From contig JBNASD010000001.1 in the NCBI GenBank assembly GCA_049720225.1, positions 228,733 through 292,732 of the forward strand: a stretch of 64,000 bases of DNA, in the 5' to 3' direction. Position 1 is the first letter of the stretch. Each line of letters starts with the position of its first letter. The position numbers were made by a program, and so were the translations under genes. This DNA is from Microgenomates group bacterium (GTDB taxonomy: Bacteria > Patescibacteriota > Microgenomatia > PFEM01 > JBNASD01). The notes beneath the pieces are model-generated. The model saw only the letters and a program-made list of their open reading frames with translations. It was not told the origin of the DNA and made no database searches. This document shows, piece after piece, positions 2,296 to 56,260 of the stretch.

Positions 2296-3821
2296 TTAAA
2301 ATCTCTTCTTTTACTTAACCATTTCCATCCTAACCAAGCATAATATTTTGTTTTTTCCCAATCGGTTAGCGCTTCTTTGGTTTTTCGCCATAAAAATTGA
2401 GGGGTTAAAAAGGAGCTATAAATTTTTCTTACCAACTCCATCAATTCTTCATCTTTCATTGGAGTTTTCATTACTGGTTCTTTCATATCATATCTATCCC
2501 AATCCAAAGTTTTTAACCAACCATTTTTTTTACATTCTTCAAAAAGAGGTGTTCCTGGATAAGGAATCACCAACGTAGCTTGAAGAGTATCTACCAATCC
2601 TTTTTTAAAAAACTCCCGCGCCATATTTAAAGTTCGCAGGGCATCTTTCTTGGTCTCCCAAGGATAACCAACCATTACCGTAATATGAGGCCATAAACCG
2701 GCTTTTTTGGCCATTTTTAAATTTTCTTCAATTTGCTCAACTTTTAAATTTTTATTTATTTTATCAAGCGTTTTCTGGTTGGCGGATTCTAACCCATAAA
2801 GCAAAAAACGAAATCCTGCTTTTGCCATTAAATTATAATCTTTTTGTGTCAAACCGCTATTAAATCGCATATTACAATCAATTTTTATTTTTTTATTATA
2901 TCCTCGCTTAATCATTCCTTCACAAAATTCTTTTAACCAATCACCAACCGGAAAACTCCCACTATCATCCATAATTTCTTTAATTGGCCAGTTTTCTAAA
3001 ATATAGCCAATTTCATCCAAAGCTCTTTTGGGTGACATTACTCGATAACAACTACCGGGATATAAAGTAGTCCAACTACAAAAAGAGCATCTCCCCCACC
3101 AACAATCTCTTCCAAACATCGTATAAGTACCTGGAGTTCGGGAATAATTACTGTTTTTGTAAGCATAAAGTTGCCAACCAGTTAATTCTCGATCAACAAA
3201 CGGTAAAGTATCTAAGTTATGGTTAAGTTTAAAATTTCCTGTAGATTGCCAACTTTGAGATTTAAGTTGGAGTTTTGCGTTTTGCGCTTTACACTTTAAC
3301 TTTTTTCTATACCAAATTCCCGGTTCTAATTTTTCTCCTTCGGTTAGATGTTTAACTAAATTAAGCATCAAAAAATCATAATCCCCTCCCGTCAAAACAA
3401 AATCCACCGGCGAATTTTGTAAACTTTCTTCCGGCAAAGCGGTTACGTGATCTCCAACCAACGCAATCTTTAATTTTGAGTTTTTAGCTTTAAGTTTTGA
3501 AATAATCTTCCAATGCTTTTTAACAACCGGCGTTTTTGTTTCTATTATTAATAAATCGGGCTTTTCTTTTTTAAAATCTCCAAACCATTCCTTAAAAGTT
3601 TGCCCTTTGGCAATTCCATCTAACCAAACAACTTCAAAACCTGCTTTTTTAAGCATCGTCGCTCCATAAGCAGGAACCACCGGATAAGCGGTCCAAGGAG
3701 CGGTGGCCCACTGAAATTGGCGATTTTGCCCTAAAAACGGAATTCCTTTAGGAGAATCAAGCGGTGGATAACCAATGACTATTTTCATTGAAAATATTGT
3801 ATCATAATAATTAAGAAACAA
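2292..3821 (-). CDS. B12-binding-domain / radical SAM protein (class-B-like) with a non-canonical cysteine spacing.
   Basis: The N-terminal region has flavodoxin-like B12-binding features (LLIIETKTPVV, KIALVGDHVTA). The Cys cluster is DCWWGRCSFCSW, which is Cx4Cx2C rather than CxxxCxxC. The downstream region (SPKRALDEIGYI...IKIDCNMRFN...LYGLESANQKTLDKINKN) is a radical SAM TIM-barrel. Confidence 0.7.
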   Translation of the reverse strand: MFLNYYDTIFSMKIVIGYPPLDSPKGIPFLGQNRQFQWATAPWTAYPVVPAYGATMLKKAGFEVVWLDGIAKGQTFKEWFGDFKKEKPDLLIIETKTPVVKKHWKIISKLKAKNSKLKIALVGDHVTALPEESLQNSPVDFVLTGGDYDFLMLNLVKHLTEGEKLEPGIWYRKKLKCKAQNAKLQLKSQSWQSTGNFKLNHNLDTLPFVDRELTGWQLYAYKNSNYSRTPGTYTMFGRDCWWGRCSFCSWTTLYPGSCYRVMSPKRALDEIGYILENWPIKEIMDDSGSFPVGDWLKEFCEGMIKRGYNKKIKIDCNMRFNSGLTQKDYNLMAKAGFRFLLYGLESANQKTLDKINKNLKVEQIEENLKMAKKAGLWPHITVMVGYPWETKKDALRTLNMAREFFKKGLVDTLQATLVIPYPGTPLFEECKKNGWLKTLDWDRYDMKEPVMKTPMKDEELMELVRKIYSSFLTPQFLWRKTKEALTDWEKTKYYAWLGWKWLSKRRDFK

Positions 3822-5704: not shown

Positions 5705-6790
5705 TCATTTTCTACTTCTTAAAATAAAAAATTTACCCTTTTTAGTAGTTCTTTCTCCAATCACTTCACAAAAACCAAAAGCTTCTTTTAAAATCTCTAA
5801 AAAAATATTTTTATATCCTTCTCCCACTACTAAAAAAATTTCTCCTCCCTTTTTAATCTTTTTTTTAACATCTCTAAATAAAAATGAAAGATCTTCTCTT
5901 TTTTTATGAAAGGGGGGATTAGATAGAACTAGATCAAATTCTTCAGAGGGAACACTTTCAATTCCCAAATAAAGCTTTGTTCTATTAAGAAGTCCAAAGT
6001 TTCTAACATTTTCTTCTGAAATTAAAATTGCACTTCTACTAACATCAACCATCGATATTTCTGCTTCTTCATTAATAAAACCAGCTACTACCCCAATTAC
6101 TCCCCATCCACATCCTAAATCAAGGATTTTTTCCGCCCTGCGAATTTTTCCTTCTGTTTCTTCCAATAAAAATCTCGTCCCTTCATCTAATTCCTGCCAA
6201 GAGAAAAGCCCTGGTAAACTCCTCATCTCAAAACTTCTGCCAAATAAATTAAATCTAACTAAAGTAGGTTGTTTTTCTTGAACTTCATTATTTCTTTTTA
6301 TTGCCCTCAAAATTCTGTATCCTCCCCTTCCTTTAGCTATAATTTCCATTTCTCCTAAAACTTTTTTTATTACCTCTCCTTGCCCCTCAAGACCCCAATT
6401 TTTATGAGTAATCACATAAATAACTCCTCCTTCTCTTAAATAATTAGCTAATCTTCTTAACCAATAATCAAAAGTTTCTTGAGACATAAAATTACTTAAA
6501 GAAAGAAGCGCTCCATCAAACTTTTCGGATGCAGGCAGTTTAGTTAATAAATCTACATTTCCAATTGGAATATCACTATCCATTACGCTATCGATTTCTT
6601 TTTCTTCCTCTAAATTATCTTGATAAACACAAAAAGCAACATTAGGTATTGCTCCTAAAAAATTTAAAAAAGCCTTTTTATTCGGATTTAAAATTAAAAC
6701 ACGACTTCCTTTCTCAAACTCAATATCAGCGAGAAGCGGAAAATATTTCAGCTCATCTTTTCGTGATAATCGTAAAGGAGAATTAATCAT
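5705..6790 (-). CDS. rsmC: RsmC/RlmG-like rRNA (guanine-N2-) methyltransferase, with a two-lobed methyltransferase architecture.
   Basis: The C-terminal catalytic lobe has ILDLGCGWGVIGV (motif I) and DLVLSNPPFH (the NPPF/H N-methyltransferase motif). A non-catalytic methyltransferase-like lobe sits at the N-terminus. The 361-aa length fits RsmC. Confidence 0.6.
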   Translation of the reverse strand: MINSPLRLSRKDELKYFPLLADIEFEKGSRVLILNPNKKAFLNFLGAIPNVAFCVYQDNLEEEKEIDSVMDSDIPIGNVDLLTKLPASEKFDGALLSLSNFMSQETFDYWLRRLANYLREGGVIYVITHKNWGLEGQGEVIKKVLGEMEIIAKGRGGYRILRAIKRNNEVQEKQPTLVRFNLFGRSFEMRSLPGLFSWQELDEGTRFLLEETEGKIRRAEKILDLGCGWGVIGVVAGFINEEAEISMVDVSRSAILISEENVRNFGLLNRTKLYLGIESVPSEEFDLVLSNPPFHKKREDLSFLFRDVKKKIKKGGEIFLVVGEGYKNIFLEILKEAFGFCEVIGERTTKKGKFFILRSRK

Positions 6791-6892
6791 TTCTTTTTCC
6801 TTTTTTTTGTCCCAAAATTATCATATTAGGATTAGTTATTAAAAACTTAAGGGTGTTTAATAATATTTTTTTTCTATCTAGTAAAAAATTCT

Positions 6893-7240
6893 TTAAACAA
6901 TAAAAAATCTTTCTTTATTTTTTTTATTTTTATTAAATTTATTAAAAATAACTCTTTCATCAAAAATATCTAAAACTTTAAACCTCGCTTTTTCTAGAAG
7001 AAAAATTATTGATTTCTTCGCAAAAAAGGTAATATGTCCTTCATTTTTAAGAAATGGGTTATAATTCCGACAAGTTATTGAGGCTAATCCCCCAACATCT
7101 CCAGTATCAATCAAAATAATTCCCTCCGGCAAAAGCTTTTCAAAGGTAACAAATCATCACTTATCAAATTTAGCGCTTTAAAAATGTTCTCTTTTCTTGT
7201 TTTTTCTTTAACTAAAGCAACCTTACCTGCCATATTTTGA
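6893..7240 (-). pseudogene. Apparent frameshifted gene remnant, made of two short ORFs in different frames.
   Basis: The 5' piece MAGKVALVKEKTRKENIFKALNLISDDLLPLKSF ends at a stop near 7139. It is followed in another frame by LPEGIILIDTGDVGGLASITCRNYNPFLKNEGH... (track ORF 6893..7132). The two pieces would be contiguous without the frame shift and loosely resemble the N-terminus of a DUF362-type protein. Non-coding AT-rich sequence flanks them. Confidence 0.3.
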
Positions 7241-8263
7241 TTTTAAATTAGGGGTAAAAAATCCTTTAAGAAATAAAATTCCGTAAACTAAATGGGTAAT
7301 AAAAATTGCGGGAATCACCAAGAAAGCTACTTTCCAATTTCTTTCTTGACGATAAACATCCCAAGCAGTAAAAAGTAAAGCAAGTAAATAAAAACTAATT
7401 ACTCCCCAATAAAACCAATTTAATAAATTACTTAAAAAATAAAATTCTAATTTTTTCGCGAAAAAGATTATAATTGGTCCACCTATTAATCCTAAAACAA
7501 AAAAGGTAGGCAATAAATATCCCAACCGAAATGAAGTTTTAGGAATGACTCGAGCAAAATATCCTCGATGGAGAGCATAACGAGAAATTTGCCGTAAATG
7601 AGGCCTAAAAATTTCTCGCCGATGATGATAGACCAAAACAGTGGGGTCGTAAATTATTTTTTTTCCTAATTTATATACTAAATCATGACACAATTTCGTA
7701 TCTTCTCCTGGCCAAAAAGAAGAATTAAATCCTCCTACTTGAAAGAAGTCTTTTTTTCTTACCAATAAATTGACGCTCGGATAATCATCAACTTCTCGAC
7801 GTGATTTAATTGCACACCGATAATTTCCTGCTCCCCCACTTCCTAAAAAAGTTGACCAAACATAGCCTGAAGTTTTTTGGAGAATATTATCTTGAGGAGG
7901 AGTAATTGCCGGACCACAAACGCCAACAATTAGTGATGGATTAAATTTTTTAAGATTAAAAATTTTTAAGGCATTTTTTAACCAATCTTTAACTGGATAA
8001 GAATCATCATCTAAAAAGGCTAAAATCTCTCCTTTTGCCTTTTTAGCTCCTAAATCTCGCTTATCTGCTGGTCCTATTTTTGGCCAAGAGGGAATAATTT
8101 TAATCCTTTTATCAGAAAATTTTTCTTTTGTTTTTTTGTCAGGAAGAATAATTACCTCAAATTTTTTTTCACTTTGAGATAAAATTGCCGGAATTGTTTC
8201 TTTTCTTAAATAATCATTAATCTCTTTTACCGGAATAATAATGGAAAACAAAACTTTTTTCAT
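7223..8263 (-). CDS. Family 2 glycosyltransferase with a C-terminal multi-TM domain.
   Basis: FSIIIPVKEINDYLRKETIPAILSQ...EVIILPD and AFLDDDSYP (DxD) match GT2. The last roughly 110 aa are hydrophobic (three or four helices). Confidence 0.8.
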   Translation of the reverse strand: MKKVLFSIIIPVKEINDYLRKETIPAILSQSEKKFEVIILPDKKTKEKFSDKRIKIIPSWPKIGPADKRDLGAKKAKGEILAFLDDDSYPVKDWLKNALKIFNLKKFNPSLIVGVCGPAITPPQDNILQKTSGYVWSTFLGSGGAGNYRCAIKSRREVDDYPSVNLLVRKKDFFQVGGFNSSFWPGEDTKLCHDLVYKLGKKIIYDPTVLVYHHRREIFRPHLRQISRYALHRGYFARVIPKTSFRLGYLLPTFFVLGLIGGPIIIFFAKKLEFYFLSNLLNWFYWGVISFYLLALLFTAWDVYRQERNWKVAFLVIPAIFITHLVYGILFLKGFFTPNLKSKYGR

Positions 8264-11218: not shown

Positions 11219-12343
11219 TTAAGCTAACCAATAACCTCGGGAAAAGAAAATTAAACTGATAACCAGTAAAATCAAGCTAAAAATTAAATAAAAAATTTTA
11301 AATCTTTGATACTTTTCCAAAATAAATCCCAAAGACAAGAAAGCAGGAAAAACTACCAAAACATACCTAGGTAAGGAAGAAAAAGTACCAGTTAAGGTTG
11401 GCAAAATATAAGCCAAAAATCCAAAAACCAGATAAGACAACCTAATTTTTTTAAGATATCCATAAACCAAAAGACCCAAAAAGCTAATTGCTACCAATAA
11501 TTCCAACCAAACAACAAAATATAGAGGATCAATTTTTGTCGTTAAAATCATCTTAAAATAGCGCCAAAAAACTTGATATAAAAGAATTATTTTCCCTCCG
11601 CTTCTTTGGGCTCCAAAATGAGGCTGAACATGGATAAAAAGCAAAGGGTCTCCATAATGAACTAATAAATATCGCATATAAAAAATTAACCCTAAAGGAA
11701 TTAAAAAAAGAAAAATTAAATTTAAAATCTTAAATTTAAAATTTAAAATCTTTTTGTCCTCCCACCATTCAATTAATAAAGCAGGCAGAAGAAATATTCC
11801 TACTATCCGTGTGGCGCTGGCAAAAGCTCCAAAAACTCCTCCCAACCACCATTTTTTAATTCTTATAAAATAAAAGGCGCCTAAAACAAAAAATAAAAAT
11901 AATGATTCCGTATAGACGGAAACAAAATAAAAGGAAGCGGGAAAGAGCAAAAGACCAATAATTACCAATTTTATAAATTTCGGGGAGTAATCTAAGGTAA
12001 GCAATTTATAAAGAAAAACCAAAGCGCCTAAAAAAGCCAAATGAGAAATTAAAAGACCAGAAACTAAATAATTATGAATAAAGTTACTTAACCACCGAAT
12101 TAAAAAAGGATAAAAAGGAAAAAATGCTTGTTGATATAATCCATAGCCATTTTGAGCAATGTTTAAATAATAAACTCCATCAAAATTAGCCCAAACTGAA
12201 GGTCCCAAATAATCTAATTTTTCAGGAAGAATTTTTTTACCTAGAAAAACTACCAATTCCAACCCAATCCGCCAAATAACAAAAATTTTAAACATCCAGC
12301 GAAAAATTTGCTGATTATTTTCTTTGAAGGTAGACTTTTTCAT
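11219..12343 (-). CDS. PIG-V/DUF2029-like GT-C membrane glycosyltransferase (putative mannosyltransferase).
   Basis: WANFDGVYYLNIAQNGYGLYQQAFFPFYPFLIRWL resembles the conserved first loop of the PIG-V/GT76 and bacterial GT87-like families. The protein is polytopic. It is a paralogue of 47221..48303 (shared KKWWLGGVFGAFA / KKWWLAGLFGALA). Confidence 0.5.
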   Translation of the reverse strand: MKKSTFKENNQQIFRWMFKIFVIWRIGLELVVFLGKKILPEKLDYLGPSVWANFDGVYYLNIAQNGYGLYQQAFFPFYPFLIRWLSNFIHNYLVSGLLISHLAFLGALVFLYKLLTLDYSPKFIKLVIIGLLLFPASFYFVSVYTESLFLFFVLGAFYFIRIKKWWLGGVFGAFASATRIVGIFLLPALLIEWWEDKKILNFKFKILNLIFLFLIPLGLIFYMRYLLVHYGDPLLFIHVQPHFGAQRSGGKIILLYQVFWRYFKMILTTKIDPLYFVVWLELLVAISFLGLLVYGYLKKIRLSYLVFGFLAYILPTLTGTFSSLPRYVLVVFPAFLSLGFILEKYQRFKIFYLIFSLILLVISLIFFSRGYWLA

Positions 12344-13382
12344 AAACTTCTACTGTTTTTAAAGCAGTTTTTTCCCAACTAAAATTCTTAACCCATTCTA
12401 ATCCATTTTTTATCAAATTATTTCTCTTTTTTTCATCTTTAATTATCCTTACTAAAGCCTGAGTTATATTTTTTATGTTATAAGGATCAAATAAAATAGC
12501 AGATTTTCCACAAATTTCTGGTAAACTTGAGGTATTGGCGCTTATTACCGGACATCCACAAGCCATCGCCTCTAAAACCGGTAAACCAAATCCTTCGGAA
12601 AAAGATGGTTGGCAATAAACACTTGCTAAATTATAAATCACTACCAAATCTTCTGTTGGTACATAGCCTAAAATTTTAATTTTATTAATTAAATTAAGTT
12701 CTTTAATTAATTGGATTATCTCTTTTGTTTCTTTTAATTCTTTATCTTCAAACGCCTTTCCTACCAAAACTAAATTGTAAATTGAAAATTGGGAATTGAA
12801 AATTTTAAAAGCTTTTATTAAACCAATTACATTCTTATTCCAATTTACATCGCCAACATAAAGAATAAATTTATCTGGCAATTGATACTTTTGTTTAATT
12901 TTTAATTTTTCGCTTTTACCTTTCACTAACTTAAATTCTTCTCCTGCGGCTAAAGGAACTACATAAATTTTTTCTTTAGGATATCCTGTTAACTTTGGAA
13001 TTTCTTCTTGCCAATAATAACTATCAGTAATCACCCCATCAATCTTTTTAAGCCGCCATTTTTGAACTTCCCAACGAATTCTTCCTTTAACTCCTGGAGT
13101 AAAATTTTCCATAAATTTCACAGGAATTAAATCATGAATGGTTACTATACTTTTAGTTAATTTTTTTGTTGGTAAAGTAAGAAAAAAGGGAGAAAAATAA
13201 GGGTAATGAATAATATCTGCCTCGACAAAAACTAATTTATCAGCTGATTTTAAAAATTCTAATTCTATTCCTTTCTTAGGAGCTATTTTTTTCAAAGCCT
13301 CTATTAAACGTTTTGTATAAAAACCAATTCCCCGAAATTGATGGGCAGAATAAAGAGGGGTCAAATCAATCACTACTTTCAT
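12315..13382 (-). CDS. Family 4 glycosyltransferase (GT-B, retaining).
   Basis: The C-terminal domain has SFSEGFGLPVLEAMACGCPVISANTSSLPEI, the EX7E-type GT4 motif. Confidence 0.85.
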   Translation of the reverse strand: MKVVIDLTPLYSAHQFRGIGFYTKRLIEALKKIAPKKGIELEFLKSADKLVFVEADIIHYPYFSPFFLTLPTKKLTKSIVTIHDLIPVKFMENFTPGVKGRIRWEVQKWRLKKIDGVITDSYYWQEEIPKLTGYPKEKIYVVPLAAGEEFKLVKGKSEKLKIKQKYQLPDKFILYVGDVNWNKNVIGLIKAFKIFNSQFSIYNLVLVGKAFEDKELKETKEIIQLIKELNLINKIKILGYVPTEDLVVIYNLASVYCQPSFSEGFGLPVLEAMACGCPVISANTSSLPEICGKSAILFDPYNIKNITQALVRIIKDEKKRNNLIKNGLEWVKNFSWEKTALKTVEVYEKVYLQRK

Positions 13383-13387
13383 TTTTT

Positions 13388-14152
13388 TTATTCTATCAGT
13401 TTTTTTACTGCTTTAAAAATACCGGTTGAATACTGAAACGCTTTTTTAGGTCGAAAAGTAATTTCTTCTGGTAACCCTAAAAATTCTCCATATTTTCTTA
13501 AAATATACTTCTCTTTTCCGTTCTTAATTTTTAAATTAGCAGGAATTTTAAGACAAAAGTCAATAAAATTCTTCTCTATAAAAGGATAAATAATTTTAAT
13601 TCCCTCCTTTTCTGATAATATCTTTTCTCTTTTTACATCTTTTTTTAACAACGTTAACTCATTTTTAATAGTCTGATTTAGCTCTCCTAACTTTATTTTT
13701 TTATAACGATGGTAACCCCCCAACAAAATATCTGGACCTTGTCCAGAAAATAAAATTTCTACTCTTCTTTTTTTAGTTTCCTCCAGACATAATAAAAAAC
13801 AAACTCCTAAAGATAAATGAGTTAAATCTATAGAAAAATTCCTCTTTTTATAAATTTTTATTACTTTAAAGATAGCTTTCTTAATTTTTTTTGAATCATA
13901 ATTAACTCTAATAATTTTCTTTTTTAAAAATTTCTCTAAAATATCCAAAAAAATCCAATCTTTACTCGTCTTACAAGCGACACTCAAAAAAACACAATTG
14001 GGAAAAGTTTTTCTTACCCACCAAGCAATTATCGAAGAATCAATGCCTCCAGAAACTAAAACTCCAACAACTTTTTTGTGATATTTTTTTTTATATTTTT
14101 CAAAACTTTCTTTAAGAATAAAATCAATTTTCTCCAAAATTTTTTTATTCAT
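13388..14152 (-). CDS. Standalone asparagine-synthetase-type PP-loop ATP-pyrophosphatase (amidotransferase synthetase domain only).
   Basis: VGVLVSGGIDSSIIA is the SGGxDS PP-loop. SGQGPDILLGGYHRY corresponds to AsnB GEGADELFGGY, and LRKYGEFLGLPEEITFRPKKAFQ is AsnB-C-like. No glutaminase domain is present, so the enzyme is presumably ammonia-dependent. Confidence 0.6.
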   Translation of the reverse strand: MNKKILEKIDFILKESFEKYKKKYHKKVVGVLVSGGIDSSIIAWWVRKTFPNCVFLSVACKTSKDWIFLDILEKFLKKKIIRVNYDSKKIKKAIFKVIKIYKKRNFSIDLTHLSLGVCFLLCLEETKKRRVEILFSGQGPDILLGGYHRYKKIKLGELNQTIKNELTLLKKDVKREKILSEKEGIKIIYPFIEKNFIDFCLKIPANLKIKNGKEKYILRKYGEFLGLPEEITFRPKKAFQYSTGIFKAVKKLIE

Positions 14153-14178
14153 TATCTCATTAATTATATAATATCTTT

Positions 14179-15849
14179 ATGTTTTATCCGGAAAATTTTC
14201 CTAAAGAAAAAGAAAATGAATTAATAAATTTTTTAAAAGAAACAGAGAAATATTGGCTTAAGAAAAAACCAATTACATATTCTGAGTTTAAAAAATATTT
14301 TTTTCAAATTTTAAAGAATGGTAGATTTTCTTTTTCTAATCCTCCACCTTTTTGGTGGTTAAATTTTATTCTTCTTCGCCACCAAAATATATTTTCTGAA
14401 GATTTTGTTAATTTTTTAAAAAAATATCTTATAAAAACCAAAACTCGTTCTATATCAGGAATCATCCCTGTAGCTATCTTTACAAAACCAGTTGGCTGTC
14501 CTTTCCATTGCGTATATTGTCCAGAAAATAAAACTCTCCCCAAAAGTTATTTAAAAGATGAGCCAGCTTTAAGAAGAGCTATAAGAGAAAAGTTTGATCC
14601 CTATTTTCAAACTCGCAATCGTTTAATTACTCTCCTTTTATCGGGTCATAAAATTGATAAGGTAGAAATTATTATCAAAGGAGGAACTTTTTCCTTCTAT
14701 TCTAAAAAATACCGTCAAAAATTTATAAAAGAAATTTTTGACGCAGCTAATACCGATATTCTGCAACTTATTAAGACAGGAGAGGAAAAAATTTTTAAAA
14801 GTAAGACACTTTCTCAAGCCCAAAAAATTAACGAAAAAGGGTTTTGTCGCATTATAGGAATAAATATTGAAACCCGAACAGATTTTATCAATCCTCAAGA
14901 AATTAAATTTTTAAGAAAATTAGGAGTAACTCATGTAGAATTAGGAATCCAAATCCTTAATGATAAAATTTTAGAGAAAATTAATCGCCAACAAAATATT
15001 AACCAAATAATCAAGGCAACTTTTCTTTTAAAAGAATCAGGATTTAAAATTTCTTATCATTTAATGCCAAATTTGCCTTTTTCTTCTCCTCAAAAAGACT
15101 TAGAAACATTCAAAAAAGTTTTTACTCCTAAATTTTCTCCCGATCATTTAAAAATTTATCCAACAGTAGTCCTTAAAAATTCCCAAATTTATCAATGGTT
15201 AAGAAAAAAATTTTATCGACCTTATTCTCTTGATCAATTAATTAACTTATTAATAAAAGTTAAAACAGAAATTATTCCTCCTTGGGTAAGAATTAGTCGA
15301 TTAGGAAGAGATATTAGTGAAAAAGAAATTATTGCCCCAAAAATTCCTTCAAATTTAAGAGAAATTGTTTTGAGAAAAATAAAATTATTAGGAAAGTTTT
15401 GTCAATGTATCCGTTGTCGAGAAATAAAAAACCAACCATGGAAAGGAAAACCTAAATTAAGAATTTTTCAATATCAAGCTTCTGAGGGAAAAGAATTTTT
15501 TTTGGAGTTTGTAGATCAAGAAAATCATTGTTTAGGATTTTTAAGATTAAGAATTCCCGCCTATCTTATTTATCCCGATAGTTATCTACCATTATTTTCA
15601 TCTTTAAAAAATGCCGCTCTTATTCGTGAACTTCATGTCTACGGGCCAGCTCTTTCTTTAAAAGAGAAAGATTCTATCGCTACTCAACATAAAAATTTAG
15701 GAAAAAAATTACTTAATAAAGCGGAAAAAATTACTCAAAAATTAAAAATAAAAAAAATTGCTATTATCGCAGGAATTGGCGTTCGTGATTATTACCGAAA
15801 ATTAGGATATTGTCTTAAAGAAACCTATATGATAAAAAATCTTAATTAA
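14179..15849 (+). CDS. elp3: Elp3-family radical SAM / GNAT protein (tRNA uridine-34 carboxymethylation enzyme homologue).
   Basis: SGIIPVAIFTKPVGCPFHCVYCP...SYLKDEPALRRAI...FDPYFQTRNRLITLLLSGHKIDKVEIIIKGGTFS matches the Elp3 radical SAM core. The C-terminus IRELHVYGPAL...QHKNLGKKLL...IIAGIGVRDYYRKLGY is the Elp3 KAT/GNAT domain. Confidence 0.85.
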   Translation: MFYPENFPKEKENELINFLKETEKYWLKKKPITYSEFKKYFFQILKNGRFSFSNPPPFWWLNFILLRHQNIFSEDFVNFLKKYLIKTKTRSISGIIPVAIFTKPVGCPFHCVYCPENKTLPKSYLKDEPALRRAIREKFDPYFQTRNRLITLLLSGHKIDKVEIIIKGGTFSFYSKKYRQKFIKEIFDAANTDILQLIKTGEEKIFKSKTLSQAQKINEKGFCRIIGINIETRTDFINPQEIKFLRKLGVTHVELGIQILNDKILEKINRQQNINQIIKATFLLKESGFKISYHLMPNLPFSSPQKDLETFKKVFTPKFSPDHLKIYPTVVLKNSQIYQWLRKKFYRPYSLDQLINLLIKVKTEIIPPWVRISRLGRDISEKEIIAPKIPSNLREIVLRKIKLLGKFCQCIRCREIKNQPWKGKPKLRIFQYQASEGKEFFLEFVDQENHCLGFLRLRIPAYLIYPDSYLPLFSSLKNAALIRELHVYGPALSLKEKDSIATQHKNLGKKLLNKAEKITQKLKIKKIAIIAGIGVRDYYRKLGYCLKETYMIKNLN

Positions 15850-17414
15850 TTACATAATTTTTCTATTTTTATTTTTCCTATTTTCCAGCTTACTTTTTCC
15901 TTTTCAAAATTTCCTCTCCATTCTTTAAACCAATTTTCTTGAGACTCTTGAGGTTCAATAATTAGGTAGATACACTCAGCCCTTTTCGAAGGAGTAATAG
16001 CGTCTATTTTTTTCTTTCCAGGAACATAATCTACTTGATTAGGTAAATAACTATAATCTTCAGGTAAATATTTATATTTTGTTTTTGCCCGCCACCAAAT
16101 GAGATATTGATAAGGGTAGTCATAAACATAAGGAGTAAAACTATAAATTTTCATCCCTTTATTATTAGCATCAGTATAAATTGAATCTATTGCCATTAGA
16201 CGGGTTCTTAAGTTACCTGGGTCTTCAATAAAAGCTTTTTCTAATTTAGTTGGTAAATATTTTTTAATATCCCACCAAAGATAAAAAATAAATATCATTG
16301 CTAATAAAACTTTAAAAATAAGTGATTTCTTCTCCCAAAAAATAAAACCAATAGTTAATCCCAATAAAGTAATAAATATCGCATCAAGAGTTCCAAAATA
16401 CCATACCCAAAGGTTATAGGGATAAATTACAAAAAAACAAAAATTGGCAAACAAAGCAATCAAAAGAATCAAAAATAAGTTTTTTTCCTTTTTCCTTTCT
16501 TTAATTAAGAAAATAACAAAAAACAAAATTAAAAAAACAAAGAAAAAAAGATGGTTGGGAAAGTGAGTTAGAAAATAATTTTTAAAAATTGAAAATCTTT
16601 CTATTAATCTTCTTAACAAATCCATATTGGCAGAAGATAAAGAATTTGCTTTACCACTCAAAAGAAACAAAATTGCTTTAGTTTGAATAAAATTATGACG
16701 AAGATCAAATAATAACTGAGGTAAAAAGGGAATTAAGAAAAAAAACCAAGATTTTATATTTTTAAACAAAAATCTCAATTTTCTAAAAATTAAAAAAACT
16801 AAAAACATCGTCAATAACCAGATTACTCCATCTACGGGTTCAAAGTGAAAAGATAATGCTATTAAAAAAAGAGCAATTTTTAAATAAATTATTTTTTCGT
16901 TATTTATTGTTTTAAATAAAAATAACAAAAATAAAGGAAATAAAAACACAATAGGATTAACATTTAAAGCATAAACAGATTTTTGGAGATAAGGAAAAGA
17001 AAAAAAATAAAGAACCAATAAAAATATTGAAGTTTTTTTATCTTCAAATAAAAGAAAAAATAAAAAGGGTAATAAAAAAGAAACAAAAAGATTCATAATT
17101 AAAAAACTTAATGGGTGTCCTTTAGTTAAAATAAAAAAAGGAATAGCTATCCAATACCAAGTAGGACCATAGAAAACTCCCTGAAGAGAAGTAGTTGGTC
17201 CAATTAGTCTAGGCTTACGAAGAAAAACTATCTCTCTTATATCCAATAAATCTCTTGCTTGATCATAAGTGAAAGCTGTCGAATTTACATACAAAAATAA
17301 AATTTTTGTCCCTAAACTTAAAATTCCTAAAAATAAAACTAAGAAAATCAAAAATTTTGAATCAATTTTTACTTTATTCCCAATCTTTTTTAATGTCAAT
17401 TCTTCTTTTTTCAT
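15846..17414 (-). CDS. Polytopic membrane protein, GT-C-like (ArnT/PMT-related). Paralogue of 45696..47186.
   Basis: The first loop reads YDQARDLLDIREIVFLRKPRLIGPTTSLQGVFYGPTWYWIAIPFF. The paralogue has the corresponding GDEGRDVLIVKRMIVDHKFTLLGPIASVAPFHLGPIYYYLMLPFL. There are more than 10 TM helices and a soluble C-terminal domain. Confidence 0.5.
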   Translation of the reverse strand: MKKEELTLKKIGNKVKIDSKFLIFLVLFLGILSLGTKILFLYVNSTAFTYDQARDLLDIREIVFLRKPRLIGPTTSLQGVFYGPTWYWIAIPFFILTKGHPLSFLIMNLFVSFLLPFLFFLLFEDKKTSIFLLVLYFFSFPYLQKSVYALNVNPIVFLFPLFLLFLFKTINNEKIIYLKIALFLIALSFHFEPVDGVIWLLTMFLVFLIFRKLRFLFKNIKSWFFFLIPFLPQLLFDLRHNFIQTKAILFLLSGKANSLSSANMDLLRRLIERFSIFKNYFLTHFPNHLFFFVFLILFFVIFLIKERKKEKNLFLILLIALFANFCFFVIYPYNLWVWYFGTLDAIFITLLGLTIGFIFWEKKSLIFKVLLAMIFIFYLWWDIKKYLPTKLEKAFIEDPGNLRTRLMAIDSIYTDANNKGMKIYSFTPYVYDYPYQYLIWWRAKTKYKYLPEDYSYLPNQVDYVPGKKKIDAITPSKRAECIYLIIEPQESQENWFKEWRGNFEKEKVSWKIGKIKIEKLCN

Positions 17415-18192: not shown

Positions 18193-19872
18193 TTAAATTT
18201 CAGCGATTTTAAAAGCGGGCTTTCCGTTAGGAAAGTAAATTATTTTAATTATTTTTGCCTCGGGAGGAATTTCTTCTTCTGTTCCTACTATTAAAACATT
18301 TTTTTGTTTTTCCAGTTTTTTCCAATCAATATTTTCAAAATGAAAATTGGCAAAGTGACGTACGGTGGAAAAACCAAATTTATCGCGAGGAGTTAATATC
18401 ACTTCTTTTTGAAATATCTCTGGCGGGTATTGTAAATAAAACAAAAATAAAATATACGGCTGATCATATTTCTCCGTCACATAAATTTTAGAATAATTAT
18501 CTTTAATAGGTTTAAGATATTCTACTAATTCTCTAAACCCATATTCCCATGCTTGAGGAGAAGTTTTAGGATAATGAACAAAATATTGATGAAGAAAGTA
18601 AAAAAAATTCCAAAAAAGTAAAGCGGAAAGAAATAAACAAATAAAGGAATTTAGAAATTTAGATTTAAATAAATTTAATAAATTAAAAAATCCATAAGCA
18701 GAGATTATTATTAAAGGAAAAACCATATTATGAGCTCTTAAAGCGCTCGGTACTTGAAAAGTTAACGCTCCCGCAATTGGTGCAATTAATAACCAAACAA
18801 AAGGAAGAAACCAATTTTTGGGTTTTTTTCTAAAAAAGAAATATATCCCGGCAAATATAAAAATTAAATCCAAAAAATACATTTCTCCTACTGCTGACGA
18901 GTTATTTCTTTCCACCCTATCTCCAATTAGAAAAAGAAAATTTCCATCAAAAAAAGATAAATAATTCTTTAAAAATTGAATTCCATAAATAAATGGTCGA
19001 TTATGAAGAATTCGTGCTAAAAATTCATTGGAGTTTTGATGTTCTCCTCGCAAACTTAAAATCAAACTATAAGGCCCAATATCCGAAAAAAGACTTAATC
19101 CAGAAAATCTTGCGGTTCCTGCAGGACCAAAAAAATCAACTAAAAGAGGAATCGAAATTAAACCCGCAATTATTCCTCCTATTAAAAAATGTTTAAAATT
19201 CTTTTTTAAAAAAATGTGTCTTTTAAAAAAGACAATCAAATTCAAACCTAAAAGGGGAATAATTATTCGAGGGCTATGATAGGTATATAAAGAAAATACC
19301 CAAAACAAAAAGGAAAAAATAAAAAATTTAGGTTCTTTTAAGGCTCTTAAAAAGAAGTAAACTCCAAAAAGAATAAAAGTGCTCGCTATATTTGTCTCCC
19401 ATCCTCCCCTTGAAAAATGAATATGCCAAGGAGAAATTGCTAAAAATAAAGCAGAAATTAAAGCTAATTTTTGATTGCCAAATATTTCTTTTACTAATAA
19501 AAATATTCCTAATATCCCTCCTATTCCTATTAAAGCTGAAGGTAATCTTACTGCCCATTCATTAAGACCTAATATTTTTACAAAAGGTAATACTAAATAA
19601 AAATATCCGCCTGGTTTATAATCGGCAAAAGATTTAAAATGAATTGGCCAAAAATTTCCATGTTCATCTTTACCAGTTAAAATCAAACTATAAGCATTGT
19701 AGCCAATTGCGGCCTCATCGGCATTTAAACCTATAGGAAATTTATCTAATTCCCACAAACGCAGAAATCCCGCTAAAAGAATAATTAAAGTTAAAAAGAT
19801 TTTTTGAAAATCGAAAATTATCCGTCTACTGCGGATCCGACTTTGGCGGAAAAATCGAAAATTTTTCTTCAT
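18193..19872 (-). CDS. GT39/GT83-like (PMT_2/ArnT-like) GT-C membrane glycosyltransferase; tandem copy 1 of 4.
   Basis: The first periplasmic loop is LNADEAAIGYNAYSLILTGKDEHGNFWPIHFKSF (acidic DE motif plus TGKDE). It also has AVRLPSALIG...AISPWHIHFSRGGWETN, more than 10 TM helices and a C-terminal soluble domain. Confidence 0.8.
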   Translation of the reverse strand: MKKNFRFFRQSRIRSRRIIFDFQKIFLTLIILLAGFLRLWELDKFPIGLNADEAAIGYNAYSLILTGKDEHGNFWPIHFKSFADYKPGGYFYLVLPFVKILGLNEWAVRLPSALIGIGGILGIFLLVKEIFGNQKLALISALFLAISPWHIHFSRGGWETNIASTFILFGVYFFLRALKEPKFFIFSFLFWVFSLYTYHSPRIIIPLLGLNLIVFFKRHIFLKKNFKHFLIGGIIAGLISIPLLVDFFGPAGTARFSGLSLFSDIGPYSLILSLRGEHQNSNEFLARILHNRPFIYGIQFLKNYLSFFDGNFLFLIGDRVERNNSSAVGEMYFLDLIFIFAGIYFFFRKKPKNWFLPFVWLLIAPIAGALTFQVPSALRAHNMVFPLIIISAYGFFNLLNLFKSKFLNSFICLFLSALLFWNFFYFLHQYFVHYPKTSPQAWEYGFRELVEYLKPIKDNYSKIYVTEKYDQPYILFLFYLQYPPEIFQKEVILTPRDKFGFSTVRHFANFHFENIDWKKLEKQKNVLIVGTEEEIPPEAKIIKIIYFPNGKPAFKIAEI

Positions 19873-21509
19873 AAAGTTTCTACGATTCTAAAAGCTAATT
19901 TACCATTAAAAAAATTTATTTCTTTTAAAATTCTTGCCTCTTCTTCTCTAATATCTTCTAAAGGAATTTCATAGGTAGCCCCAATATAGAGTCTTTTTTT
20001 TACAAACCTATCTTTAGGCCAATAAATCTCCCTAAAAACAATATTATCAATTCTTTCTACTCTTCCCACATCACCTTCTGGATGTTCAATCAATTTTGCT
20101 TGTTTTTGATAATTTTCCGGTGGGTATTGAGAATAAAAAAGCCAAAAAATATAAGGTTGACCATATTTAGAAGTAAAAACAACTTCTTCATAATCATCTG
20201 TTTTATCCTTAATAAATTCCACTACTTGTTTGTATCCGTAAAGCCAATCTTCAGAATAAGTAAAGGGGAGATGAATAAAAAATTGATCTAAATAAAAAAT
20301 GAAAGAAAAAAACCAACCAAAAATTAAAATTCCTAAAATCCCAACTTTAAAAAAATGAGGAATTTTCTTGACAATTTGAAAAACAAAATAAATTCCTAAA
20401 GCTATCAACAAAGAAAGAGGAATCACTATAAAGTAGGAACGAGTTGCTTGAATAATATCGCGACTTAAAGCGGCGGGTAAAGGAGCAATTGCCAACCAGT
20501 ACCACCAAAATCCTTGTTTTTTAGAATTTTGACTAATCAAATAATAAACTCCCAATGGTAAAAATAAAATTCCCATATGATTTAAAACTCCTACGTAAGG
20601 AACGCTATGACGGTGATTACTCCAATCCCCTTCAAAAAATAAAAATCGTGGAGAAAAATGATTTAAATAACGTTCTAAAATTCCTCGCCCAAAATAAACT
20701 AAATTATTATGAAATAAATTCCAGGATAAATTTTTAAAATTATTTTCTTGCTCTAAAATGAATCTCTTTTCTTCAGGCGGTCGAGGATAAGAAAAAATAC
20801 TCATTACTTTTAGTCTTCCCCCTGCCTTACCAAAAAAGGTAAAATAAAAAACCGGCAAAACTAAAATCCCCATTATTAAAACCCCTAAAGTTATTTTTTT
20901 CCACTCTTTTTTCTTCAGTTTTTCAGGAAAAAATAATATTAACCCTAAAATTAAAAGAGGAGTAATTAATTTAGCGGAATTATAAACATGAAAACACAAA
21001 CCAAAAAACAAACCACTAACCAACCATTTTCTTTTAAGAAAAAAGTAAATTCCTAAAAGCAAAAAAACTAATAAAACGTTAACCTCCCAAGCCCCATGGG
21101 AATAATGATAGTGCCATGGCGAAAAAGCCAAAACTATACTAGTCAAAAGAGAAATCATTTCATTGTTAAAAATCTCTTTTACCACCAAAAAGGCCAGTAA
21201 AATACTTAAAGTGCCAAAAAACGCCGCGGGAAATCTTACCGCAAATTCATTTAAACCAAAAACTGCCTCGGAAATAGCGGTTAAATAAACATAAACTGGT
21301 GTTTTATAATCGCCAAAAGCTTTAAAAATTAGAGGTAAAAAATTTCCATATTCATCTTTTCCTGTTTTTAAAATTGACCAAGCATTATAGCCCCACGAAG
21401 GTTCATCCCAGTGCATTGAAGGAGGTGCACTACCTAATTTAAATATCCTAATTCCCAAGGCAAAAATAATAACTAAAAAAAGAAAAATTTTAATATTTTT
21501 TTCTTTCAC
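19869..21509 (-). CDS. GT39-like GT-C membrane glycosyltransferase; tandem copy 2 of 4.
   Basis: MHWDEPSWGYNAWSILKTGKDEYGNFLPLIFKAF...AVRFPAAFFG...AFSPWHYHYSHGAWEVN is collinear with copy 1. Confidence 0.8.
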   Translation of the reverse strand: MKEKNIKIFLFLVIIFALGIRIFKLGSAPPSMHWDEPSWGYNAWSILKTGKDEYGNFLPLIFKAFGDYKTPVYVYLTAISEAVFGLNEFAVRFPAAFFGTLSILLAFLVVKEIFNNEMISLLTSIVLAFSPWHYHYSHGAWEVNVLLVFLLLGIYFFLKRKWLVSGLFFGLCFHVYNSAKLITPLLILGLILFFPEKLKKKEWKKITLGVLIMGILVLPVFYFTFFGKAGGRLKVMSIFSYPRPPEEKRFILEQENNFKNLSWNLFHNNLVYFGRGILERYLNHFSPRFLFFEGDWSNHRHSVPYVGVLNHMGILFLPLGVYYLISQNSKKQGFWWYWLAIAPLPAALSRDIIQATRSYFIVIPLSLLIALGIYFVFQIVKKIPHFFKVGILGILIFGWFFSFIFYLDQFFIHLPFTYSEDWLYGYKQVVEFIKDKTDDYEEVVFTSKYGQPYIFWLFYSQYPPENYQKQAKLIEHPEGDVGRVERIDNIVFREIYWPKDRFVKKRLYIGATYEIPLEDIREEEARILKEINFFNGKLAFRIVETL

Positions 21510-23134
21510 TTTATTTTTCCAATTAAAAAAGCAGTTTTCCCATCTTGATATTTTATCTCTTCTAAAAGTTCTATTTCAAAATTAATTTCTTGTGGAGAAA
21601 TTGTTATTAACTCACCTGTTTTTAGTTTAATTTTCCTCCAATCATCAATAAACCAATATTTTCCGATTCTATCAACATTTACCCATTTGTCTTCCCTATC
21701 ATAACGAATAACCTCCTTTTCTTCTTGATATAATTTAGGATCATATTTTTGATAAAAAAGATAAAAAATATGAGGTTCACCGTAAAATTTGGTTACCAAA
21801 ATTCGTTCGTAATCTTTTTCCAATAAACTTAATTTTTGATAAAGAGGCTTATATCCTGCTTGCCATGTGGAAGTATGAACTTTCGGGTAAGAAAAAAAAT
21901 AATCAAATAAGAAATTTTTCCAACTAATAAAGGAAAAAAACAATATTCCTCCTAAAAAAACCGTTTTTATTTTTTTATTCCTAATATTTTCCCAAATCAT
22001 TGTTGCTCCTCCCGCATTTAAAAAAGGAATTAGTAATAAAAGAAAAATTGCCCTTACTGGATGGGCAGTTCCAGTAAAGCTATTGGCAATTGGAGAAACT
22101 AAAAGCCACCAAACTAAGAATAAAAATATTTTCCTTTCTTTTTTTAAAAACCAAAAAATTCCTAAAATTATTAACGGTAATTGCCATAAATATGCCATTC
22201 CCCTTTGGGGAACGGTATATTGTGCTAAATTAGGTCCTTTTAAAAATAAAAAATCCAAAGAAAAATGACTAAAATAATTCTTAAAGAAGATTAAAGAATA
22301 AAATACAGGGCGATTATAAAAAAGCCGGCAAAAAAATTCTGGATTCTTTTCTAAACAAATTCCTCTTTTTTCATTAATCTGGGCTAAAATTCCTTGATTG
22401 GTAAAAATTCCTACTTTCGCCAATCTTTCTGGTGTCCCTCTAAATCCGCTTAAAACTAAAGGAAAAGAAAATAAAATCATCAATAATAAAGGGGGGATTA
22501 TTTTTTGCCATTGTCGTGAAATAAAAAAGAAAATCATCCCTCCCAATAATAGAGGGGTAAAAATTCGACAAGCATTATAAGTATATAAAGAAAGAGCAAA
22601 AATCAAGAAAGAAAAATAAAAAAATTTATTATTTTTAATTCCTTTGAAAAAAAATAAGGTTCCCAAAATTAATAAGAAAAAAGCTAAATTAGCTTCAAGC
22701 GCCATCCGACTTGTCTGAATATGCCAAGGTAAAATCGCCAGAAAAAAACCGGTTAAAAAGGGAAAAATTGATGTTTCTTTTATAATTTCTTTTGCCAGAA
22801 AAATTACAATTAATACGCTTAAAACACCAAAAATTACACTCGGCAATCTCACCGCTGTTTCATTTAATCCAAAAATCCCTAGGAATGGAGTAGCGGTATA
22901 AATATAAACCGGCAATTTATACTCCCCAAAAGCTTTAAAGTTTAAAGGCAAAAATATTCCCCATTCATCTTTACCAGTTTTTAAAATTGACCAAGCGTTA
23001 TAACCAATGGAGGCTTCATCGGAAATAAAAGTTGGATGATTGCCTATATCCCAAATTCTTACCCCGAAAGCCAAAATAAAAATTAAAATTAAAAAAATTT
23101 TTTCTTTTTTACTCATTTTCTTTAATATCCGCAC
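21506..23134 (-). CDS. GT39-like GT-C membrane glycosyltransferase; tandem copy 3 of 4. An alternative start is MSKKEK at 23116.
   Basis: FISDEASIGYNAWSILKTGKDEWGIFLPLNFKAF...AVRLPSVIFG...AILPWHIQTSRMALEAN. Confidence 0.8.
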   Translation of the reverse strand: MRILKKMSKKEKIFLILIFILAFGVRIWDIGNHPTFISDEASIGYNAWSILKTGKDEWGIFLPLNFKAFGEYKLPVYIYTATPFLGIFGLNETAVRLPSVIFGVLSVLIVIFLAKEIIKETSIFPFLTGFFLAILPWHIQTSRMALEANLAFFLLILGTLFFFKGIKNNKFFYFSFLIFALSLYTYNACRIFTPLLLGGMIFFFISRQWQKIIPPLLLMILFSFPLVLSGFRGTPERLAKVGIFTNQGILAQINEKRGICLEKNPEFFCRLFYNRPVFYSLIFFKNYFSHFSLDFLFLKGPNLAQYTVPQRGMAYLWQLPLIILGIFWFLKKERKIFLFLVWWLLVSPIANSFTGTAHPVRAIFLLLLIPFLNAGGATMIWENIRNKKIKTVFLGGILFFSFISWKNFLFDYFFSYPKVHTSTWQAGYKPLYQKLSLLEKDYERILVTKFYGEPHIFYLFYQKYDPKLYQEEKEVIRYDREDKWVNVDRIGKYWFIDDWRKIKLKTGELITISPQEINFEIELLEEIKYQDGKTAFLIGKIK

Positions 23135-24836
23135 TGGAAAATATCACGAACGAAATTAACCCATCAGGCGTCTTAATCTCTTTAACAAATCTCACATAAG
23201 GAGATTTTTTGATATCCAAATCAGGAATGGCGAGTTCTGCGGGATTAACAATATATAAAGTTTTTAAATCTCCTTCTCCCCTTTTTACTCTTCCTAAATC
23301 AGGTGAATAAAAATGATACTTTCCCAAAGCATTTACCGTAAGAGTAATTTCTTTTTGGACTTCATAAGGAGAAAATTTTCCATAAAATAAACTATAAACC
23401 GTCGAAGGCTCCCAACTTGGAGAAATATAAATTCTTTCATATTTATTTTCCACCTTATTTACATATTCGAACACTTTTTTATACCCATAATTCCACCACC
23501 GTCCGGAAATTTTTGGATAGTGAACAAAATAATGATGAAAATAATTGAAGCACGAAAGTATAATTACCAAACTTAAAGCTACCCCAAAAATTATTTTGAA
23601 TTTTTTATTTTTTAAATAGTTAAAAAACTCACCAATTCCTAAGGCAGTAAAAATCTGTAACCACGGCAAAAATAAAAACAATCTTAAAGCATGTGTACCT
23701 CCATTTAAAGTCAAAGAAGCAGGAATGGGAGCTAAAACTAACCACCACAAACTAAATTGGAAAAATTTATTTTTTTCTTTTATTGCCTGCCAAAAAGCAA
23801 AAATTAAACCTAATATTAAAAACGGCAATTCCCATAAATACATTTCTCCTCTTCCCCCAATTGAATGGCGAGGATTAGGGTCACCGCTTCCGAATAAAAA
23901 TGAAGGAGAAATTGCTGAAAGATAATTTTTTACAAAATCGTCAAACCAAAAAACCACTTTATTATGTAAAACCCGCTCAAAAATTCCCTGATAATCACAT
24001 TTTTCCCTTGCTAATCTCACTTTTTCTGCTGTTTGGGGATTATTAAATATACTGATTCCTAAAAAGCGCGCTTGACTAGTACCTTTTAAAAAATCTTTTC
24101 CTAATGGTAAAAGAACAATAAATAAAACTATCAAAAAAATCATCAAATTTTTTCTTTCGCTTAAAACTTCTTTTCGCCATAAATAAAATAGGACAACTAA
24201 AATTAACGGTAAAAAAAGTTTAGAAGTATTATAAGCATAAGGAGTTAATCCTAAAAAAATAGCTGAAAGAATAAACAAAAATCTTTTTTTATTTTCTAAA
24301 CCCTTCCAAAAACACAAAATTCCCAAAGGAAATAAAACTGGTAAAAAATTTACCTCCAGTCCTATCCGACTGATATGAAAATGCCAAGGAGAGATTGCTA
24401 ACAAAAATGCACTTAATAAAGCAATATTTTTATTTTTTGTAAATTTTTGAACTAAAAAGAAAACAGCTAAAACACTTAACATTCCTAAAATCACTGCTGG
24501 TAATCTTACTGCCATTTCAGTCAATCCAAAAATTGCTACAAACAAGGTATCCAAATAAATATACAAAGGCACTCGCCAATCCCCTAAAGATTGAAAATGA
24601 ACTGGTAGAAAATTACCAAAATAATCTTTTCCTGTTTTTAAAATCGAATAAGCTTGATAACCAGTATCCACTTCGTCTCCAAATAACCCTGGTGGTATCC
24701 GTGTTACTTCCCAAAAACGCAAAAATCCTGCCACTAAAAAAATTAAAATCAAAAAAAGAAGCTTCACTTCATTTTTATTTTTTTTAAAATTTTTCTCCAT
24801 TTTTGCCCACTCCAGATAATAAAGGTTAAAAGCCAA
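23109..24836 (-). CDS. GT39-like GT-C membrane glycosyltransferase; tandem copy 4 of 4. The start is probably the internal MEKNFKK near 24800.
   Basis: LFGDEVDTGYQAYSILKTGKDYFGNFLPVHFQSL...AVRLPAVILG...AISPWHFHISRIGLEVN. Confidence 0.8.
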   Translation of the reverse strand: MAFNLYYLEWAKMEKNFKKNKNEVKLLFLILIFLVAGFLRFWEVTRIPPGLFGDEVDTGYQAYSILKTGKDYFGNFLPVHFQSLGDWRVPLYIYLDTLFVAIFGLTEMAVRLPAVILGMLSVLAVFFLVQKFTKNKNIALLSAFLLAISPWHFHISRIGLEVNFLPVLFPLGILCFWKGLENKKRFLFILSAIFLGLTPYAYNTSKLFLPLILVVLFYLWRKEVLSERKNLMIFLIVLFIVLLPLGKDFLKGTSQARFLGISIFNNPQTAEKVRLAREKCDYQGIFERVLHNKVVFWFDDFVKNYLSAISPSFLFGSGDPNPRHSIGGRGEMYLWELPFLILGLIFAFWQAIKEKNKFFQFSLWWLVLAPIPASLTLNGGTHALRLFLFLPWLQIFTALGIGEFFNYLKNKKFKIIFGVALSLVIILSCFNYFHHYFVHYPKISGRWWNYGYKKVFEYVNKVENKYERIYISPSWEPSTVYSLFYGKFSPYEVQKEITLTVNALGKYHFYSPDLGRVKRGEGDLKTLYIVNPAELAIPDLDIKKSPYVRFVKEIKTPDGLISFVIFSSADIKENE

Positions 24837-56214: not shown

Positions 56215-56260
56215 CTTAAGCTTATATTTTAGCACAATTTTGCTAAAATATTTATTAATT

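Follow-up and report, generated by a model that had tools for sequence, protein, structure and literature searches.

The divergent Elp3 gene pair

This report concerns a divergent gene pair in a 64,000-nt stretch of DNA (hereafter the window, meaning the whole stretch analysed) from contig JBNASD010000001.1, positions 228,733-292,732 of the forward strand, in the assembly GCA_049720225.1 of a Microgenomates group bacterium. The source is an uncultured member of the candidate phyla radiation (CPR) with a genome of low GC content (about 28%). A gene for Elp3, which modifies the wobble uridine of tRNA, here stands head to head with a gene for a standalone protein related to the synthetase domain of the asparagine synthetase AsnB (hereafter the AsnB-like protein). 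The original prediction, made from the sequence of this one genome, had taken the two as a possible functional pair in which the second protein amidates the Elp3 product 5-carboxymethyluridine (cm5U), with amidation of a sugar acid as the competing explanation. The pair and its spacer are as follows.

13388-14152, minus strand: standalone AsnB-type synthetase-domain (PP-loop ATP pyrophosphatase) protein of 254 aa, PF00733
14153-14178: divergent spacer of 26 bp, TATCTCATTAATTATATAATATCTTT, with a near-palindromic TATAAT-like box
14179-15849, plus strand: Elp3 (radical SAM plus GNAT/KAT) of 556 aa, TIGR01211

All three had been correctly placed and described by the original prediction, including the head-to-head intergenic region of 26 bp and, for the 254-aa protein, the motifs SGGIDSS and GQGPDILLGGY (both present) and the lack of a glutaminase domain. 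The Elp3 open reading frame (ORF) scored 469 bits against TIGR01211 (cutoff 350), covering model positions 47-522 of 522, and gave an end-to-end alignment with the solved structure of Dehalococcoides Elp3 (DmcElp3, 5L7J) at E=6e-100. Both functional motifs are intact, namely the radical-SAM CxxxCxxC (CPFHCVYC in the window, CPGKCIYC in DmcElp3) and the acetyl-CoA motif QHxxLGxxLL (QHKNLGKKLL and QHRGLGRKLL, respectively); at its N-terminus the window protein has about 85 residues extra relative to DmcElp3. By these sequence measures the ORF is a bona fide Elp3, and formation of cm5U at tRNA position 34 (cm5U34) is predicted for it.

An AsnB-type synthetase domain with a dismantled aspartate pocket

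The 254-aa protein matched PF00733 (Asn_synthase, E=1e-30) over the C-terminal synthetase domain only, and a class-II glutaminase domain was not found in it by this profile match. On TIGR01536 it reached 98.6 bits against a cutoff of 267, over model positions 248-384 only, and it fell far under the cutoffs of every full-length asparagine synthetase model. Its Pfam DUF7411 annotation covers the PP-loop region only and is uninformative on function. An AF2 model (pLDDT 96) was compared with solved structures by Foldseek, giving TMq values of 0.83-0.87 for the synthetase domains of human ASNS (6GQ3, 0.85) and E. coli AsnB (1CT9, 0.84), 0.72-0.78 for beta-lactam and carbapenam synthetases, and only 0.40-0.44 for the tRNA thiolases MnmA, NcsA and TtuA; no solved structure of any standalone homologue was found. 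The beta-lactam and carbapenam synthetases are likewise derived from AsnB, keeping the adenylating synthetase domain for a changed substrate, although unlike the window protein they also keep a catalytically inactive N-terminal domain, and they make intramolecular amides in secondary metabolism.

In the family alignment the PP-loop S34-G-G-x-D38-S39, Q138, D141, R175 and K236 are invariant. The active-site positions of human ASNS correspond to those of the family (numbered by the window protein) as follows.

ASNS PP-loop: family S34-G-G-x-D38-S39, conserved
ASNS D367: family D141, conserved
ASNS D400 and R403: family D172 and R175, conserved
ASNS K466 (catalytic): family K236, conserved
ASNS E364: family Q138, Gln in 35 of 35 sequences
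ASNS E368: family position 142, Ile/Val in 32 of 35 sequences

The alpha-amino group of aspartate is held in ASNS by an acidic cluster of E364, D367 and E368, and ASNS loses its activity in the variant E364Q (PMC6748925). Since the family has an invariant Gln at precisely this position, the AsnB-like protein would be no asparagine synthetase; we rejected that assignment, only D141 of the acidic cluster being kept and the glutaminase domain being absent. That is, as read from the alignment, the adenylation machinery is kept in the family and the aspartate-specific pocket is dismantled. With the AsnB and ASNS synthetase domains the window protein thus has in common the fold, the PP-loop SGGxDS, the catalytic Lys, the equivalents of D367, D400 and R403 and, presumably, the chemistry of an acyl-adenylate plus ammonia. 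It differs from them in lacking the N-terminal glutaminase, in falling short of the AsnB synthetase domain by about 80 residues, in the two pocket substitutions, in a KKAxQY(G/S) signature that is specific to the family and includes a two-residue QY insertion (KKAFQYS in the window protein), and in having Elp3, not amino-acid metabolism, as conserved partner.

No conserved Cys was found in the family alignment, which excludes both thiolase chemistry and a QueC-type zinc site. Assignment as a tRNA 2-thiolase (MnmA, NcsA or TtuA) was accordingly rejected; these are also PP-loop ATPases that adenylate a tRNA base, whereas the window family is structurally distant from them and lacks conserved catalytic or Fe-S Cys residues. 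Assignment to QueC (PF06508) was rejected as well, at 15.9 bits against a cutoff of 22 over the PP-loop region only, with no invariant Cys. QueC (7-cyano-7-deazaguanine synthase) resembles the window protein in being a standalone PP-loop enzyme that amidates a carboxylate with ammonia in a nucleobase-modification pathway, and differs in acting on the free base and in proceeding to the nitrile. Dph6 (PF01902/TIGR03679) was likewise rejected: the window protein gave no PF01902 match, and the window contains no Dph6 homologue. Dph6 too is an ATP pyrophosphatase that amidates, with ammonia, a carboxylate on a component of translation, and in archaea it is physically linked to the family; it belongs, however, to a different PP-loop subfamily, and its substrate, EF2 diphthine, is missing in bacteria.

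Recurrent pairing with Elp3 in CPR bacteria

Standalone AsnB-like homologues of about 250 aa were found mainly in Microgenomates, Roizmanbacteria and Pacebacteria. In a tally resting on exact-protein look-ups and contig matching, Elp3 was divergently adjacent to the AsnB-like gene in 11 further non-redundant CPR loci (the divergent pair is recorded for the window, L001, L002, L004, L081, L082, L161, L163, L168, L251 and L252). All close relatives with room upstream have the divergent Elp3, with the sole exception of L167, while L003 is cut at a contig edge. Pairs of AsnB-like and Elp3 proteins fell on a common contig in 23 cases, where chance would give 0.4; contigs of only 2.2-3.8 kb are among those shared, and in two Roizmanbacteria records the pair has consecutive locus tags (COY87_02900/02905 and A2313_04315/04320). 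The reverse look-up, starting from Elp3 proteins without a listed partner, found a divergent 253-aa Asn_synthase neighbour in both cases (L251 and L252). At L082 (1737-3237) the Elp3 match lies in two mutually out-of-frame pieces, which points to a frameshifted pseudogene or to an error of assembly.

Clustering of ORFs over 14 loci identified the AsnB-like gene (14 of 14) and Elp3 (13 of 14) as broadly conserved, and no others. One lineage (L002, L081, L161, L251 and L252) retains additional flanking genes; the remaining loci share only the pair, and about eight independent genomic contexts are represented, with a median pairwise identity of 39% among the AsnB-like proteins. Downstream of the AsnB-like gene elsewhere lie genes for a holin-like protein and a patatin, for MnmA (L163), or unknown genes. 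Glycosyltransferase neighbours occur in this window only, and are absent from L161, L163, L167, L168, L251 and L252. At L163 (Pacebacteria, 6001-7858) the gene for MnmA, the tRNA U34 2-thiolase (365 bits, cutoff 284), convergently overlaps the 3' end of the AsnB-like gene, so that Elp3, AsnB-like and MnmA genes form a cluster of U34-related genes there.

The neighbourhood comparison beyond this genome, which the original prediction had proposed as a check, thus favours its tRNA reading: recurrent adjacency supports, on comparative-genomic grounds, a functional Elp3 pair with a candidate cm5U amidase, while the competing idea of a sugar-acid or glycan amidase is disfavoured by glycosyltransferases following the gene here only. 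From gene neighbourhoods we conclude that the AsnB-like gene is very probably coupled in function to Elp3. No published link between Elp3 and an asparagine-synthase-like protein was found in the literature searched, and the association therefore appears to be new.

The spacers measure 17-75 bp in 10 paired loci, most with a central TATAAT-like box. In many loci (the window, L001, L004, L161, L163, L251 and L252) the start codons are only 17-36 bp apart, and in the short-spacer loci the TATAAT-like box lies 6-10 nt ahead of the AsnB-like ATG; such short spacers would imply leaderless or near-leaderless, mutually overlapping divergent transcripts. A promoter and terminator scan gave no enrichment above shuffles in this AT-rich DNA. 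The recurrence of short spacers with TATAAT-like boxes suggests a compact shared divergent promoter region.

Archaeal and viral relatives

For this analysis we defined a QY-signature family by three features: about 250-310 aa in length, Gln or an aliphatic residue where ASNS has E364, and a C-terminal K-K-A-x-Q-Y-(G/S). The window protein belongs to it (Q138, RPKKAFQYSTG), and the longer signature R-(P/K)-K-K-A-x-Q-Y-(G/S) is common to the CPR proteins and a large archaeal family, with at least 1,288 matches and with members in, among others, Methanosarcinales, ANME-2, Thermoplasmata, Poseidoniales and Woesearchaeota. The QY signature was present in 30 of the 36 standalone cellular homologues, 5 of the 125 full-length cellular ones and none of the 80 viral ones. 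The viral set came from a scan of IMG/VR (L171-L250, phages and giant viruses), in which 73 of the 80 loci encoded full-length AsnB with the canonical FSDG motif; neither the family signature nor Elp3 was found at any of the 80. These full-length viral proteins are unrelated to the standalone family.

In two Poseidoniales loci (L011 and L253) Elp3 and the AsnB-like gene run in the same direction as an operon, 3-4 bp apart. Here, in another domain of life, the same two genes are arranged differently, which argues against mere inherited synteny. An exhaustive profile search retrieved 922 representatives at E<=1e-30. Among the relatives are glutaminase-fused forms, which combine a class-II glutaminase domain with the same QY signature; these identify ammonia as the nucleophile of the family, which standalone members presumably take up as free NH3. 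A rough tree does not separate members linked to Elp3, members linked to Dph6 and those fused to a glutaminase, but shows them interspersed.

Fusions of GAT-II, AsnB_C and DUF71 (Dph6) were described in Methanohalophilus, Methanosalsum and Nanosalinarum by de Crecy-Lagard et al. in 2012 (PMC3541065), so that the Dph6 fusion, unlike the Elp3 link, is already known. Its authors took the AsnB part to supply Dph6 with NH3; a reviewer asked which reaction the asparagine-synthetase-like PP-loop domain catalyses (PMC3541065). As a member of the QY-signature family, the AsnB_C domain of such fusions falls among the standalone and Elp3-linked members in the tree; the window protein differs in being a standalone bacterial protein partnered by Elp3, in a domain of life without Dph6 or diphthamide.

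Genomic surroundings in the window

The AsnB-like gene lies inside a minus-strand glycosylation island of about 55 kb that spans nearly the whole window and is unusually large given the small CPR genome. The island and the other features are as follows.

384-55686, minus strand: glycosylation island, with many GT2 genes, two GT4 genes, two Wzx-like flippases, PAP2 and NTP-transferase
Within the island, minus strand: three NDP-sugar dehydratases/epimerases
2292-3821: B12-binding radical SAM protein of 509 aa, among glycosyltransferases
12315-13382, minus strand: GT4 gene, separated from the AsnB-like gene by a 5-bp gap
15846-17414: multi-pass membrane protein of 522 aa without Pfam match, convergent to Elp3
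18193-24836 and 44182-47198, within the island: at least seven tandem PMT_2/GT-C paralogues
51904-53196: Ugd, 38 kb away from the AsnB-like gene
53237-53947, plus strand: TrmD (tRNA m1G37 methyltransferase)
56171-57670, plus strand: RtcB (RNA ligase)
58959-63872: predicted surface protein of 1,637 aa with PKD, SpaA/prealbumin-like, SdrD B-like, CarboxypepD_reg and DUF11 repeats

Three plus-strand housekeeping genes, Elp3, TrmD and RtcB, are thus embedded in the island, and because other housekeeping genes also sit there, glycosylation surroundings are uninformative in this genome. The 5-bp gap to the GT4 gene was as originally described, whereas the AsnB-like gene, taken then for the last of the minus-strand operon, lies upstream of GT4 and is the first gene of the unit. 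Ugd, invoked as a source of GlcA, is indeed in the window, although at the distance given above. Two overlaps were also seen: the Elp3 gene and the convergent membrane protein gene overlap stop to stop by 4 bp (15846-15849), and an opposite-strand RNaseH-like (PF04308) gene shares about 120 bp with the RtcB ORF at the 5' end of the latter (55723-57670). Across the entire 64 kb no tRNA gene or Rfam family was found at threshold.

Proposed reaction

We propose, with moderate confidence and from sequence comparison, that the 254-aa protein is an NH3-dependent amidoligase converting cm5U34 to 5-carbamoylmethyluridine (ncm5U34); both the substrate, cm5U-tRNA, and the product, ncm5U, are inferred. 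First, Elp3 would turn tRNA U34 into cm5U, a reaction established for Elp3 homologues. Second, ATP would be bound at the PP-loop of the AsnB-like protein and the cm5 carboxylate adenylated with release of pyrophosphate, a step proposed because the PP-loop, D141 and K236 are conserved. Third, free NH3 would attack the acyl-adenylate and displace AMP, yielding ncm5U34. Fourth, where MnmA is present, 2-thiolation to ncm5s2U could follow, which would fit the finding that in yeast efficient 2-thiolation is promoted by ncm5, not by cm5 (PMC3110198). Published accounts call the ncm5U-forming enzyme unknown or uncharacterised (PMC3110198; PMC10275265), in agreement with the original prediction that the enzyme amidating cm5U had not been identified.

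Several observations weigh against this proposal. Within the CPR, no Elp3 lies within 6 kb of the L167 gene (43% identical), and in the window itself the AsnB-like gene, 5 bp upstream of GT4, probably shares a transcript with glycosylation genes. An RNA-binding domain is not recognisable in the protein, and ncm5U has not been reported from CPR bacteria or Poseidoniales. Most archaeal members lack a nearby Elp3, about 15 archaeal loci have no informative neighbour at all, and among the top 150 of the 922 representatives there was no fusion of Elp3 to an AsnB-like domain. Instead, six representatives are Dph6 fusions, three AsnB_C-Dph6 and three GATase-AsnB_C-Dph6 (P0387, P0392, P0417, P0423, P0452 and P0499), and true archaeal Dph6 (TIGR03679, 259-264 bits) is adjacent to the AsnB-like gene in L169 (468-1901) and nearby in L254 (4667-6864). 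The CPR clade is monophyletic, and its closest archaeal relative (the outgroup, L169) is one of these Dph6-adjacent members. In yet another context, in the Methanosarcinales locus L170 (6001-10961), the AsnB-like gene heads an operon of GatC, GatA and GatB, which form the tRNA-dependent amidotransferase GatCAB, followed by a NifB-like radical SAM gene, with the genes overlapping by 4 bp. The family may therefore have more than one substrate. A single function paired with Elp3, as first envisaged, thus gains from the recurrence of the Elp3 link and is complicated by the Dph6 ties of the archaeal relatives, which had not been foreseen. In our reading the Dph6 association, for which the Elp3 model alone is insufficient, ties together two analogous terminal amidations within the translation apparatus.

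Alternative explanations

The same Dph6 ties could instead mark the core role of the family, as NH3 supply to or channelling for Dph6, or as amidation of a carboxylate on a protein such as a translation factor, with the archaea-derived CPR copy acting on a macromolecular carboxylate other than cm5U or having no single conserved substrate. Fusion in six representative clusters, the two loci with Dph6 adjacent or nearby, the Dph6-adjacent closest relative of the CPR clade and the published interpretation of the fusion as NH3 supply (PMC3541065) all point this way. Bacteria, however, are without diphthamide, and Dph6 was not found in the window or in any CPR locus; moreover the CPR clade retains the full set of catalytic residues and a tight Elp3 linkage. 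The standalone forms, having no glutaminase domain, cannot supply NH3, and the conserved adenylation residues argue for a substrate of their own, the very question put by the reviewer of the 2012 paper (PMC3541065). We regard this explanation as unlikely.

Acceptance of the Elp3 link would still allow a different product to be made from cm5U, either the nitrile 5-cyanomethyluridine (cnm5U), known from Euryarchaeota, in two ATP-dependent steps, or an amide with an amine other than ammonia. Both cnm5U and cnm5s2U occur at archaeal tRNA position 34, no biosynthetic enzyme for them was named in the literature found, the family is widespread in archaea (its at least 1,288 matches), and fusions of two PP-loop domains exist. 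The precedent is QueC, for which the succession from carboxylate through amide to nitrile, giving preQ0, is established. The match to QueC is nonetheless weak and confined to the PP-loop, with no conserved Cys for a zinc site, nitrile formation is not known for AsnB-type enzymes, and the glutaminase-fused relatives suggest plain ammonia transfer. Furthermore, among the matches listed, the named archaea exclude Halobacteria, Methanococcales and Thermococcales, where cnm5U is found. Such a product seems to us quite unlikely.

It is very unlikely that the protein is a housekeeping NH3-dependent asparagine synthetase or other small-molecule enzyme that remains beside Elp3 only through inherited synteny or a shared bidirectional promoter. 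It does belong to the Asn_synthase family and is so annotated in public records, the monophyly of the CPR clade means that the adjacency could in part be inherited, and the GatCAB operon around one archaeal member relates to Asn-tRNA. Set against this are the invariant Gln in place of a Glu essential to ASNS, together with the large loss of the acidic pocket for the aspartate alpha-amino group, the persistence of the pair at 39% median identity while all flanking genes turn over, and the independent arrangement in the Poseidoniales operon.

An accessory ATPase of Elp3, serving tRNA loading or release as do eukaryotic Kti12 or Elp456 rather than downstream amidation, would account for the tight linkage, and eukaryotic Elongator needs accessory ATPases (PMC6511879). 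Bacterial and archaeal Elp3, by contrast, are thought to work alone (PMC13315578). The residues kept extend beyond those that bind ATP to those on the acyl-adenylate and nucleophile side (D172/R175 and D141), and glutaminase domains in relatives make sense only for an amidotransferase, leaving this idea highly improbable.

Least credible is amidation of a uronic or other sugar acid by a WbpS/LpsI-type member of the glycosylation island: the position 5 bp upstream of GT4 inside an island of about 55 kb that includes Ugd speaks for it, but no other family member examined has glycosyltransferase neighbours or a conserved polysaccharide-cluster location, TrmD and RtcB are embedded in the island too, Ugd is 38 kb off, and known sugar amidotransferases of the AsnB family carry the glutaminase domain that this protein lacks.

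Biological meaning

In all three domains of life, decoding is tuned by wobble modifications derived from cm5U; in humans, defects of the Elongator pathway cause neurological disease. Kti11/Dph3 connects Elongator with diphthamide synthesis in eukaryotes. Echoing that connection, the proposed cm5U34 amidoligase activity might be extended to the whole QY-signature AsnB_C family, as a general prokaryotic ncm5U synthetase (in Euryarchaeota possibly taking the first step to cnm5U), with its Dph6 fusions and adjacencies forming a coordinated, evolutionarily linked module for the wobble-base and EF2 diphthamide amidations; this would point to an ASNSD1/YML096W-type paralogue, or a Dph6-associated protein, as the eukaryotic ncm5U enzyme. 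We offer this extension tentatively and think it rather unlikely to hold as a whole; in the literature on ASNSD1/YML096W no tRNA link was found.

The label "unknown" has stood on the enzyme for ncm5U from at least 2011 onward (PMC3110198), and the two-gene CPR module of Elp3 and a 254-aa putative amidoligase provides a concrete, easily expressed candidate for this long-standing gap. If the proposed activity is true, it would answer the 2012 question on the asparagine-synthetase-like PP-loop domain fused to archaeal Dph6, and would give a function to about 900 protein clusters now annotated "asparagine synthase". It would also represent an AsnB-type amidoligase with a tRNA nucleobase as substrate, and some CPR bacteria and marine Group II archaea would then possess a eukaryote-like xcm5U wobble pathway.

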